From Acidobacteriota bacterium (GTDB taxonomy: Bacteria > Acidobacteriota > Terriglobia > Bryobacterales > JACQDG01): a stretch of 37,355 nt of DNA. The notes beneath the pieces are model-generated. The model searched no databases. It was not told the origin of the DNA and saw only the letters and a list, made by a program, of their open reading frames with translations. Made by a program: the position numbers and the translations under genes. Below, in pieces: positions 1-1,923 of this stretch; within the stretch, counting starts at the first letter, position 1; every line of letters starts with the position of its first letter. The stretch lies in NCBI GenBank assembly GCA_016201185.1, contig JACQDG010000224.1, positions 1-37,355 of the forward strand, given 5' to 3'.

Positions 1-2
1 CG

Positions 3-140
3 GGGCAGATCGTGCTTTCCAGTGTGGGCTTCGTCAAGGCTGACCTGGAAGAGGCGGCGCGTTGGCTGGGCGTTGCGAACCTGTTCCACCGCGACGAAAA
101 GATCGAAGCTTTTCGCGCCGGTTGAGGGTCCAAGAACTAA
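3..140 (+). CDS. C-terminal end (5'-partial) of a probable thioredoxin-fold TlpA/AhpC-TSA-like protein; in-frame TGA at 123-125 read as selenocysteine (…FRAG-U-GSKN*)
   Basis: Open frame from position 3: GQIVLSSVGFVKADLEEAARWLGVANLFHRDEKIEAFRAG, TGA, then GSKN-TAA (138-140). A SECIS-like hairpin follows. The family call rests on my recall of the G[CU]GSKN C-terminus in redoxins. If TGA is a true stop, the CDS ends at 125. Confidence 0.7.
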
Positions 141-156
141 ACTCCGGTCGGAGTTT
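139..156 (+). promoter_or_regulatory. candidate bacterial SECIS element
   Basis: Perfect 7-bp stem AAACTCC/GGAGTTT with loop GGTC beginning 20 nt after the UGA. The E. coli fdhF SECIS has GGUC at a similar distance. Confidence 0.7.
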
Positions 157-163
157 TGATTCC

Positions 164-334
164 ATGCCAAAGAAGCCGGCGCGGCGGCGGAACGTGTTCC
201 GGGCGGCGAAGGAAGTCCGGAAGCTGGCGCGGGAGCGAATCGGCCCGGTGCCGGCGGGCCGAACGATCCAGCCCAAGAGCCGCAAGCCCACGAAGCATCC
301 CAAGAAAGAAAAAGAAAGCTGGCTGGAAAACTAG
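164..334 (+). CDS. small basic hypothetical protein (56 aa)
   Basis: ATG at 164 within ORF 62..334; K/R-rich MPKKPARRRNVFRAAKEVRKLARERIGPVP…; fills the gap before tdk on the same strand. Confidence 0.7.
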   Translation: MPKKPARRRNVFRAAKEVRKLARERIGPVPAGRTIQPKSRKPTKHPKKEKESWLEN

Positions 335-350
335 CGGGGACGAGGGGCGC

Positions 351-962
351 ATGAACATCGTGCAAGGACATACCGGCTGGCTGGAAGTGATCTGCGGGCC
401 GATGTTCTCCGGCAAGAGCGAGGAGCTGATGCGGCGGATGCGAAGAAGCGAGATTGCCCGGCGGCGGGTGCAGATGTTCCAGCCGGCGGTCGACCTGCGG
501 CGTTCCTCCGAGGAGGGCGTCTCCCAGGGCGGCCTGCGCACCCCGCCGCTGCTCGTCTCCTCGGCCAAGGAGATCCTGGATTTCCTGGAAGTGCGGACGG
601 AAGTGGTAGGCATTGACGATGCGCATTTCCTGGGTCCGGACCTGGTGGAGATCGCCAACCACCTGGCCGACATGGGCAAGCAAGTGATCGTGGCAGGGCT
701 TGACACCGATTACATGGGCCGGCCTTTCGAGCCGATCCCGGCGCTGCTGGCGCTGGCCGAAGAGATCACCAAGACGCTGGCCATCTGTGTGCAGTGCGGC
801 GGGCCGGCCAAGTATACCCAGCGGCTGGTGGAATCGACGGAACGGATTGTGATCGGAGCGGCCGGGCTGTATGAGGCCCGCTGCCGCCGTTGCTTCGAGC
901 CCGGTGTACCCCGCCAGCAGCAACTGGATTTTGTGAAGCCGAAGCCGGGAAAGGTGCAGTGA
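351..962 (+). CDS. tdk: thymidine kinase (TK1-like family), atypical Walker B
   Basis: P-loop GPMFSGKS, GLDTDYMGRPF, Zn lasso CVQC…YEARCRRCF. ATG 351 follows GAGG. Walker B reads GIDDAHF. Confidence 0.9.
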   Translation: MNIVQGHTGWLEVICGPMFSGKSEELMRRMRRSEIARRRVQMFQPAVDLRRSSEEGVSQGGLRTPPLLVSSAKEILDFLEVRTEVVGIDDAHFLGPDLVEIANHLADMGKQVIVAGLDTDYMGRPFEPIPALLALAEEITKTLAICVQCGGPAKYTQRLVESTERIVIGAAGLYEARCRRCFEPGVPRQQQLDFVKPKPGKVQ

Positions 963-990
963 TGGCGCCCTTCCTGTCGGCCGGTCCCCT

Positions 991-1923
991 GTGAACGAAC
1001 AACCAACTTCCCCTGAAGAATCCGGAGAGGACAGGAACCCTGTCCCCCGCTGGCTGTCTTCATTCTTGCCTGCCTCGCCCGCCCGGTTCTTCCGCTCCCT
1101 GATCCGGCTTGTCGTTTTTTTTCTTTTTACATGGATCGCGTGGTGGCTCGTCGCCAAGATGATTACACCGCTGGTGGACATGCTGGTGGCCAGCGCCTTG
1201 TCGCTGGCTGTGGCTGTAGTCTCGATCACCGCGGTCATGATGCGCATCTACGAGCTCCAGCCTTTTTATGTGGTGGGATTCTTTTGGAATCGCGTGGCCC
1301 TGGCGCATCTGAAAATGGGGCTGGCGCTGGGGGCCGGCTCTTCCTTGTTGATAGTGCTGATCCAATGGGCCGGCGGGTGGGTCCGCTTGGAGCGCATCGG
1401 GCCGATTCCCAACGCCTGGGCGACCTTCCTTTTCGGCTTCTTCATCCTGGCGGTGGGGGCCACGGGAGAAGAGCTGCTCTTTCGAGGGTATGGTTTTCAA
1501 CACTTGATCTGCGCCTTTGGCCCCTGGTTTTCCATCCTGTTTACCTCCGGGCTGTTTGCCCTCGCGCACACGGCCAATCCTTCTTTTTCGCGCTTAAGCC
1601 TGATCAATACGGGCCTGTTCGGCCTGGTATTTGGTTATGCCTACTGGCGCACGCGGGATTTGTGGCTGCCACTCGGCATGCACTTTGCCTGGAATTTCTC
1701 TCTGACCACTATCGGCGCAACCGTCAGCGGGCTTAAAATTAAATTGACGGCAGTTTCCGTAGTTTCGGCCGGCTCGCGGCTGTGGAGCGGCGGTGATTAC
1801 GGGCCGGAGGCCAGCCTGGTGACCAGTTTTGTTCTGCTGGCGACGATGGGGCTTCTCTGGAAGCGACCCCCGGCCCGGCAGCAGCAGGGGATTGTCGCCG
1901 CCCAGTATGGAGGCCGGACATGA
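991..1923 (+). CDS. CPBP/Abi family intramembrane glutamic endopeptidase
   Basis: Multiple hydrophobic helices; motifs EELLFRG, FALAH, MHFAWN. Start uncertain. Confidence 0.9.
   Translation: MNEQPTSPEESGEDRNPVPRWLSSFLPASPARFFRSLIRLVVFFLFTWIAWWLVAKMITPLVDMLVASALSLAVAVVSITAVMMRIYELQPFYVVGFFWNRVALAHLKMGLALGAGSSLLIVLIQWAGGWVRLERIGPIPNAWATFLFGFFILAVGATGEELLFRGYGFQHLICAFGPWFSILFTSGLFALAHTANPSFSRLSLINTGLFGLVFGYAYWRTRDLWLPLGMHFAWNFSLTTIGATVSGLKIKLTAVSVVSAGSRLWSGGDYGPEASLVTSFVLLATMGLLWKRPPARQQQGIVAAQYGGRT

Follow-up and report, generated by a model that had tools for sequence, protein, structure and literature searches.

A predicted selenocysteine near the C-terminus of a thioredoxin-fold oxidoreductase of Acidobacteriota, with a SECIS-type hairpin at the stop codon

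Contig JACQDG010000224.1 of an Acidobacteriota metagenome-assembled genome (MAG; order Bryobacterales, GenBank GCA_016201185.1) begins with the 3' end of a gene in which an in-frame UGA is followed by four codons, a second stop and a short hairpin. We analysed the first 37,355 nucleotides of this contig (G000:C400:1-37355, here denoted the window); the MAG comprises 497 contigs at 64.75% completeness. Comparison with relatives indicates that the UGA at 123-125 is very probably (probability about 0.92) decoded as selenocysteine (Sec), five residues from the C-terminus of a ~165-residue cytoplasmic TlpA/ResA-like thioredoxin-fold oxidoreductase (denoted the redoxin). The original prediction, made from the letters of this DNA alone, had proposed such a Sec residue together with a selenocysteine insertion sequence (SECIS), and each refutation test named there was run, none of them coming out against it. 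Frame 3 of window 3-140 reads GQIVLSSVGFVKADLEEAARWLGVANLFHRDEKIEAFRAG, TGA (123-125), GSKN (126-137) and TAA (138-140), and the frame and the hairpin are as first read. The features at the gene end are:

3..122, + strand: 3' end of the 5'-truncated redoxin gene, 40 codons (ending in EKIEAFRAG), covering the end of the thioredoxin-fold domain and a C-terminal extension.
123..125, + strand: in-frame UGA, read as Sec (L006, a full-length relative, has it at position 161); all 44 aligned members have TGA here, and 19 fused homologues have an aligned Cys.
126..137, + strand: predicted four-codon C-terminal tail G-S-K-N (GGG TCC AAG AAC), with an amino-acid-level conservation pattern.
138..140, + strand: presumed true stop TAA, overlapping the foot of the hairpin; an in-frame stop lies 4-15 codons past the TGA in all 44 members.
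139..156, + strand: SECIS-type hairpin, with the 5' arm at 139-145, the loop GGUC at 146-149 and the 3' arm at 150-156, assigned from bacterial SECIS (bSECIS) constraints, covariation and family-wide spacing.

The window starts at contig base 1, so the gene is 5'-truncated and lacks all but the final 40 of the codons that precede the TGA. The remainder lies beyond the contig start, and a search of the other MAG contigs for the 5' part found none, the sole match in the own genome being a paralogue on contig C180 (61.6 bits). The product of window 3-122 matches ~160-residue homologues in 6/6 genomes of the same family, with 65-75% identity to five of them and 50% to one, and the 40-residue query also found homologues in numerous genomes belonging to another family of the order. 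We examined fifteen close loci (L003-L009, L011-L014 and L016-L019), leaving out L010, L015, L020 and L021, which are weak partial matches (E 0.009-0.72) in long frames. All fifteen encode a protein of ~160 residues whose last four are F-[RK]-[AP]-G; after these come TGA, G-[SA]-[KRL]-N, a stop and a hairpin. A profile of the close-relative proteins was then used to search 401 genomes, among them the own one, sampled evenly over the phylum. In 46 of the 400 others the match crosses a single TGA and reaches the end of the model (positions 164-165); this count is a lower bound, as three rows scored as having no stop, with alignments that ended early, turned out to have the TGA and a short tail. 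Two genomes of the sample are flagged as unpublished: G064, counted among the 46, and G192, whose locus L084 is among the 44 members analysed below; no claim depends on either one by itself. The phylum table holds 17 rows without a stop, in frames of 343-1077 residues, and the TGA form is found in 28 of the 30 best phylum loci. At the DNA level, each of the 47 standalone relatives has retained the TGA in frame, then a short tail with the consensus G-S-K/R-N, then another stop, so that the conservation asked for by the original prediction is present throughout, as is the hairpin in the window and the 43 relatives in which it was analysed. The expectation that gene callers would truncate the protein was also borne out, since 119 of the 120 best database homologues stop at the residue before the UGA. 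These entries are named 'TlpA family protein disulfide reductase' or 'peroxiredoxin' and come from Acidobacteria, Bryobacterales, Terriglobales and Candidatus Binatus.

A different reading of the locus is that the TGA is an ordinary stop, that the hairpin is a terminator or another regulatory stem-loop, for example a mask over the ribosome-binding site of the next gene, and that GSKN is conserved as nucleotides. The codons following the TGA bear directly on this. In the 44 members used for codon and hairpin analysis (the window and 43 relatives, including L084 of G192), codon +1 is Gly as GGG (16), GGC (10), GGA (6) or GGT (2), with Ser in 6, Val in 2, His in 1 and Ala in 1. Codon +2 is Ser, as TCN in 36 and AGY in 2, or Ala (6); codon +3 is Lys (20) or Arg (20), written with six different codons, with Leu in 3 and Met in 1; codon +4 is Asn, as AAC in 29 and AAT in 10, with other residues in 5. 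The Lys/Arg exchange at codon +3 goes via unrelated codons. Third-position entropy in codons +1 to +4 is 1.71, 1.56, 1.58 and 0.81 bits, in each codon the highest of the three positions, with 0.27-1.35 bits at first and second positions. This three-periodic variation, with synonymous and conservative codon exchange, is the pattern of a translated peptide rather than of a conserved RNA or DNA motif, and neither the third-position variation nor the Lys/Arg and TCN/AGY exchanges are expected under conservation of nucleotides. The tail has four codons in 30/44 members and 5-15 in 14/44, and every member has a near in-frame second stop (TAG in 22, TGA in 16, TAA in 6), which likewise argues against an ordinary stop at the TGA.

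The window hairpin is a perfect 7-bp stem, AAACTCC (139-145) with GGAGTTT (150-156), closed by GGTC (146-149), and its loop starts 20 nt past the TGA. The first two bases of the 5' arm are the last two of the TAA, the rest of the 18 hairpin bases being post-coding. The placement of the SECIS in the 3' untranslated region, as originally proposed, holds here and in the 30 members with a four-residue tail; in the 14 with a longer tail the hairpin is partly or wholly coding. The likeness of the loop to that of Escherichia coli fdhF was confirmed, as the K-12 gene has a GGTC apical loop 18 nt past its TGA. The bSECIS model, as given in PMC13188914, requires 3-9 nt in the apical loop, 4-16 bp in the upper stem, 16-37 nt from UGA to loop, a minimum free energy (MFE) of -7.5 kcal/mol or lower, and a G among the first two loop bases, with G or U as the usual next base. 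The window element lies within these limits, with a 4-nt loop beginning GG, a 7-bp stem, a spacing of 20 nt and an MFE of -9.2 kcal/mol (window 123-163, three flanking pairs counted). Rfam models searched against window 1-400 at E up to 10 gave two chance-level matches only.

Across the family, the loop of the lowest-energy hairpin lies 18-22 nt past the UGA in 43/44 members, the exception being L016, in which another hairpin (29 nt) is picked. We applied one fixed SECIS-like test to all sequences: a stem of at least 5 bp, a loop of 3-5 nt, G[GU] within the first three loop positions, a spacing of 18-22 nt and a folding energy of at most -5. It was passed by 44/44 members (L016 included, by its canonical hairpin), by 3 of 440 mononucleotide shuffles and, in the own genome, by 9 of 800 TGA-terminated frames with a minimum length of 300 codons and by 81 of 8059 frames with a minimum of 100. 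The spacing from the UGA stays at 18-22 nt while the tail runs from 4 to 15 residues, suggesting that the hairpin is placed relative to the UGA and not to the stop, a position that neither a terminator nor a mask over a ribosome-binding site would require.

Stem sequences are wholly different between lineages. A MAFFT alignment of the 44 elements was out of structural register and was replaced by a covariance model built from 6 seeds, which gave 31 matches at E up to 0.2; the other 13/44 elements fell short of that E-value and stand outside the pair counts, and an alignment at E up to 1 was not used, as it took in four spurious matches along with the true but weak L074. In the 31-match alignment 92.5% of cells are paired, against 62.8 ± 2.4% in shuffled alignments (0/500 as high) and at most 49.7% when the partner is slid by 1-3 columns. 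Compensatory changes on both sides are found at 7/7 stem pairs, and the covariation score is 0.707 as against 0.222 ± 0.028 in shuffles (0/500 as high). The alignment is fitted to the model and so favours structure, a bias that the slid and shuffled controls share only in part.

Several features of the window would suit an ordinary stop followed by a regulatory stem-loop: TTTT follows the hairpin, the next ATG comes 7 nt on, GGAG lies in the 3' arm, the folding energy is no better than chance, and TGA is the commonest stop of the genome, ending 1252 of the 2682 open frames with 300 codons or more. The last count also indicates that TGA is not generally reassigned in this genome. A terminator and promoter scan of window 1-1200 found nothing, and the relatives have no U-tract after the stem. 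Together with the hairpin that follows the UGA, the codon pattern of the tail and the homologues described next, which have Cys at the UGA position and continue in frame, these results make the ordinary stop very improbable.

The Cys homologues were found by a scan for the Cys form of the motif in one genome per species, which returned 97 stretches, 16 of them encoding a relative by tblastn. The 16 loci belong to Acetobacteraceae, other Alphaproteobacteria, a Burkholderiaceae MAG, a Chloroflexi MAG and one record titled Bifidobacterium, and all of them read [FL]RPG-C-GA[KR]N, in frame into a domain of ~340 residues. Two acidobacterial genomes in which the Sec form is also present, G017 and G006, encode a paralogue with an AhpC/TSA domain, PG-C-[VS]SRH-LE and then the ~340-residue domain; G170 (L091) also has the fused Cys form, making three acidobacterial PG-C-xSRH loci. 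Thus, of the Cys homologues predicted at the outset, 19 with a matching motif ([FL][RK]PG-C-G[AS][KR]N or PG-C-xSRH) exist, and all are fused. The split is complete, with 19/19 Cys forms fused and 47/47 standalone forms carrying TGA. Sec aligns with a conserved Cys, the classical criterion for a selenoprotein.

That every Cys homologue is fused to the ~340-residue domain could also mean that the standalone gene is in decay, a nonsense mutation having cut an ancestral two-domain protein down to its N-terminal module. The short form is conserved over dozens of genera, however, with purifying selection on its tail and hairpin; the second domain was found neither within 1.5 kb of the standalone genes of the 43 relatives nor anywhere in the 37-kb window, not even as a remnant; and two genomes carry both forms at separate places. 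We regard decay as barely credible. The ~340-residue domain itself matches no Pfam or NCBIfam family, and its best sequence match in the PDB has E 0.94; its AlphaFold model is of moderate confidence (predicted local distance difference test, pLDDT, 72.4), and the weak fold matches (best E 2.1e-4, TM-score 0.27) did not identify a fold.

A translated tail would also be explained by plain read-through, in which a standard tRNA (a near-cognate tRNA for Trp, Cys or Arg) would read the UGA and the hairpin would merely stimulate the event, and the Arg found in one homologue and the lack of an assembled tRNA-Sec in the MAG, both discussed below, fit such a scheme. The hairpin, however, has the geometry and the G-G/U loop of a SelB-type SECIS as described in PMC13188914, like that of fdhF, and Cys, found at this position in the homologues, is the usual counterpart of Sec. 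The Sec machinery expected by the original prediction is present in the MAG as selA (569.8 bits), selB in two pieces at contig ends (positions 1-111 at 176.6 bits, positions 136-579 at 184.6 bits) and a partial selD over the cut-off (129.4 bits), selC being the part that was not recovered. Several known selenoprotein genes, listed further on, are encoded in the same MAG, and tRNA-Sec with anticodon TCA was found in 4 of 5 gene-carrying relatives checked. Reading by a standard tRNA therefore has a slim chance at most.

Full-length relatives provide the protein context. Over the 40 residues that precede the UGA, L006 shares 70% identity with the window, and 73% when the tail is counted as well. 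Read with TGA as Sec, it matches AhpC-TSA (PF00578) at 66 bits, over a cut-off of 26, and Redoxin (PF08534) at 50.1 bits, in residues 5-132, whereas all 14 of its NCBIfam matches are under cut-off, the best being a ResA subfamily at 62.9 versus 170 bits. The redox-active thioredoxin fold first suggested for the window fragment thus holds for its full-length relatives, which have the AhpC/TSA fold and a CPTC active site. K40, C43, P51, Q72, V111, P112 and U161 are invariant in 41 aligned members and C46 is conserved in at least 90%. The Sec, at 161, comes ~118 residues after the active site, on a C-terminal tail. Members with CPTS, CGTS or CKTT in place of CPTC (L077, L079, L090 and L099) still keep the UGA and the tail, indicating that the conserved pair is Cys43 and Sec161. 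The AlphaFold model has a pLDDT of 95.7 and a predicted TM-score (pTM) of 0.91, with the tail (151-165) at 91-97 and modelled as ordered; the nearest solved folds are ResA and other TlpA-type proteins (TM-score 0.72-0.76, 21-24% identity over ~140 residues). Read by eye, the proteins begin ~10 residues before the first strand and have no hydrophobic segment N-terminally, and the redoxin is therefore taken to be cytoplasmic.

A number of points weigh against decoding of the UGA as Sec. Selenium insertion at the UGA is a prediction from sequence comparison. The window holds 45 residues of the redoxin, and fold and active site are borrowed from relatives whose identity to it in the region both cover is 50-75%, with the closest five at 65-75%. 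The forms examined include no standalone Cys form, and the orthology of Sec and Cys forms is that of a whole protein with a domain. One metagenomic homologue, P0011 (159 residues, on a 788-nt contig), reads FRAG-R-GSKN, with a sense codon at the Sec position and the tail in frame; Arg at this position with the GSKN end kept occurs in 1 of the 120 database homologues. Without the three flanking pairs the bare hairpin folds at -7.2 kcal/mol, slightly short of the -7.5 threshold. Folding of the single sequence is not significant, either over 41 nt (123-163; -9.2 kcal/mol, z = -0.04, 86 of 200 shuffles as good) or over 76 nt (100-175; z = -0.81). Finally, tRNA-Sec was found neither in the MAG, where the best Rfam hits are tRNA-Ser and tRNA-Leu and ARAGORN reports 30 tRNAs with several amino acids missing, nor in the relative G006, which is 94% complete. 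Its absence from the MAG is uninformative, because only those 30 tRNAs were assembled at 64.75% completeness.

Under Sec decoding, SelB carrying Sec-tRNA(Sec) would bind the hairpin at 139-156 (GGUC loop, 20 nt past the UGA) and deliver Sec, after which translation would add G-S-K-N and terminate at the TAA at 138-140. The product would combine a CxxC site (CPTC in relatives) with a Sec five residues from its C-terminus, on a tail of the form F-R/K-A/P-G-U-G-S-K/R-N. Sec161 and Cys43 would then form a redox relay via a selenenylsulfide, with Cys46 as the usual but dispensable third centre.

The recoding mechanism is ordinary (SelB and SECIS); the position of the Sec and a SECIS beyond the stop are unusual. 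The fdhF gene resembles the window in having an in-frame UGA and a short stem-loop with a GGUC loop, at 18 nt as against 20 nt here. In fdhF, however, the element is embedded in a long reading frame and the stem is interrupted by a bulged U; the window stem is perfectly paired, and 16 of the 18 hairpin bases follow the stop. With TlpA, ResA and DsbE (CcmG) the redoxin shares the fold and the position of the CxxC, but it stays below every NCBIfam cut-off, has no N-terminal anchor or signal as judged by eye, and carries an extra C-terminal extension of ~30 residues ending in the Sec. The Sec-containing thioredoxin-fold families in Table 1 of PMC13188914 include a Prx-like thiol:disulfide oxidoreductase (UxxC), a UGC-containing TlpA and Redoxin (UxxC). 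These too are bacterial redox proteins with one Sec that are routinely mis-annotated; in the UxxC, UGC and CxxU families, however, Sec replaces an active-site Cys, whereas the redoxin keeps its CPTC and would have Sec at 161.

Sec likewise stands a few residues from the C-terminus in the CUAEP/CCAEP radical SAM proteins (NF040546), in thioredoxin reductase and in UXX-star and KCU-star, both listed in the same Table 1 (PMC13188914). These proteins are unrelated to the redoxin (P0001), which matches none of their NCBIfam models. The Gly-Cys-Sec-Gly motif ends thioredoxin reductase, and the resemblance of that arm to the redoxin tail is a functional analogy only. Where Sec is near the C-terminus a bacterial SECIS must sit at or beyond the stop. 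A post-stop element is thus not new in principle, being implied by the C-terminal families and engineered for mammalian thioredoxin reductase, which was made in E. coli with a SECIS past the stop codon (PMC11431864), showing that such an element works. The UGSC family (PF24696) shares the U-G-S motif, which is internal there; its model, run at E up to 10, matched neither P0001 nor the three fused forms, and does detect true UGSC genes in G006 and G017. No family with CxxC and a C-terminal G-U-G tail was found among the 119 prokaryotic selenoprotein families of Table 1 in this 2026 review (PMC13188914), and no description of the redoxin family was found in published titles, abstracts and text passages, supplementary tables and figures lying outside the search, so that an earlier listing is possible. 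The family appears to be uncatalogued.

If the Sec is real, 119 of the 120 closest database entries for a common soil and groundwater protein of Acidobacteriota lack at least five residues, the most reactive one among them, and biochemistry or structural work on the annotated form would concern a dead enzyme. Sec on a tail and not in the CxxC, as in animal thioredoxin reductase, is rare in bacteria, and the redoxin would offer a small single-domain model for Cys-Sec relays. Natural post-stop SECIS elements, free of coding constraint, would also be useful templates for recombinant selenoprotein expression.

Directly downstream of the gene for the fused Cys form, G006 and G017 carry a true UGSC gene (PF24696, one TGA, reading AD-U-GSC):

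L060 598-2541 and L092 ~1489-2010, + and + strand: fused Cys form and UGSC gene (PF24696), first locus.
L061 1252-2826, - strand, with L093: fused Cys form and UGSC gene (PF24696), second locus.

The fused Cys form and the adjacent UGSC protein may belong to one redox system, and the pairing is a functional lead on two abundant selenoprotein families, for neither of which a description of function was found. A fusion denoted 'UGSC/Unknown_1' is mentioned in a Global Ocean Sampling study (PMC2398784).

A wider proposal joins these threads into an uncatalogued, phylum-wide family with a foldback Cys43-Sec161 relay, a pathway shared with UGSC and a downstream gene gated by the SECIS. In it, the ordered Sec tail may fold onto its own active site, as a one-chain analogue of the Sec arm of thioredoxin reductase. 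The standalone Sec protein may be the free-living N-terminal module of the two-domain Cys protein, forming with UGSC one sulfur/selenium redox pathway. Sec decoding, and with it selenium supply, may gate a small basic protein encoded downstream, via the GGAG in the 3' arm of the SECIS. Taken as a whole this proposal is tentative and rather unlikely.

Downstream of the hairpin the window encodes:

164-334: a very basic open reading frame (ORF) of 56 residues, with no Pfam family.
351-962: thymidine kinase.
991-1923: Rce1-like protease.

The ORF at 164-334 starts 7 nt past the hairpin, and the GGAG of the 3' arm stands 10 nt ahead of its ATG. The same arrangement recurs in L003, L006 and L008. 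In L004, a start at TTG would share bases with the stop codon. The GGAG of the SECIS arm ahead of this ORF is a hint of coupling and suggests that its translation is possibly coupled to Sec decoding.

A genome-wide SECIS-like screen of the MAG gave further candidate selenoprotein genes:

Formate dehydrogenase alpha (FdhA), with UGA in ARL-U-HGP: TIGR01553, 1375 bits.
CUAEP/CCAEP-tail radical SAM (seleno)protein: NF040546, 460 bits; partial, cut at the contig start.
YciW-related (seleno)protein: NF053654, 168.8 bits; partial, cut at the contig end.
Two rhodanese-type candidates: below cut-off.
Loci of these five UGA-containing genes with SECIS-like hairpins, L094-L098: G000:C171:9354-12491, C77:13-969, C178:4212-4838, C7:6158-7111 and C289:747-1148.

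In the phylum survey, four genomes of one genus (G235:C67, G333:C59, G158:C11 and G225:C32) gave TlpA-like matches that end at model positions 141-143, with one in-frame TGA in frames of 368-382 residues; they may represent a different selenoprotein, with its Sec elsewhere. The gene neighbourhood of the standalone redoxin is not conserved across the phylum, and no conserved operon was found. Neighbours in various lineages (L062, L065, L009, L012, L017 and L087) are often genes for DNA repair or nucleotide metabolism, such as a MutY-like HhH-GPD protein, a DinB-type polymerase and an NAD-dependent ligase, the thymidine kinase being the neighbour in the window. In L080 a fusion of glutaredoxin and pyridine-nucleotide-disulfide reductase lies downstream of the redoxin gene, and in L078 a Pyr_redox_2 enzyme is encoded upstream.

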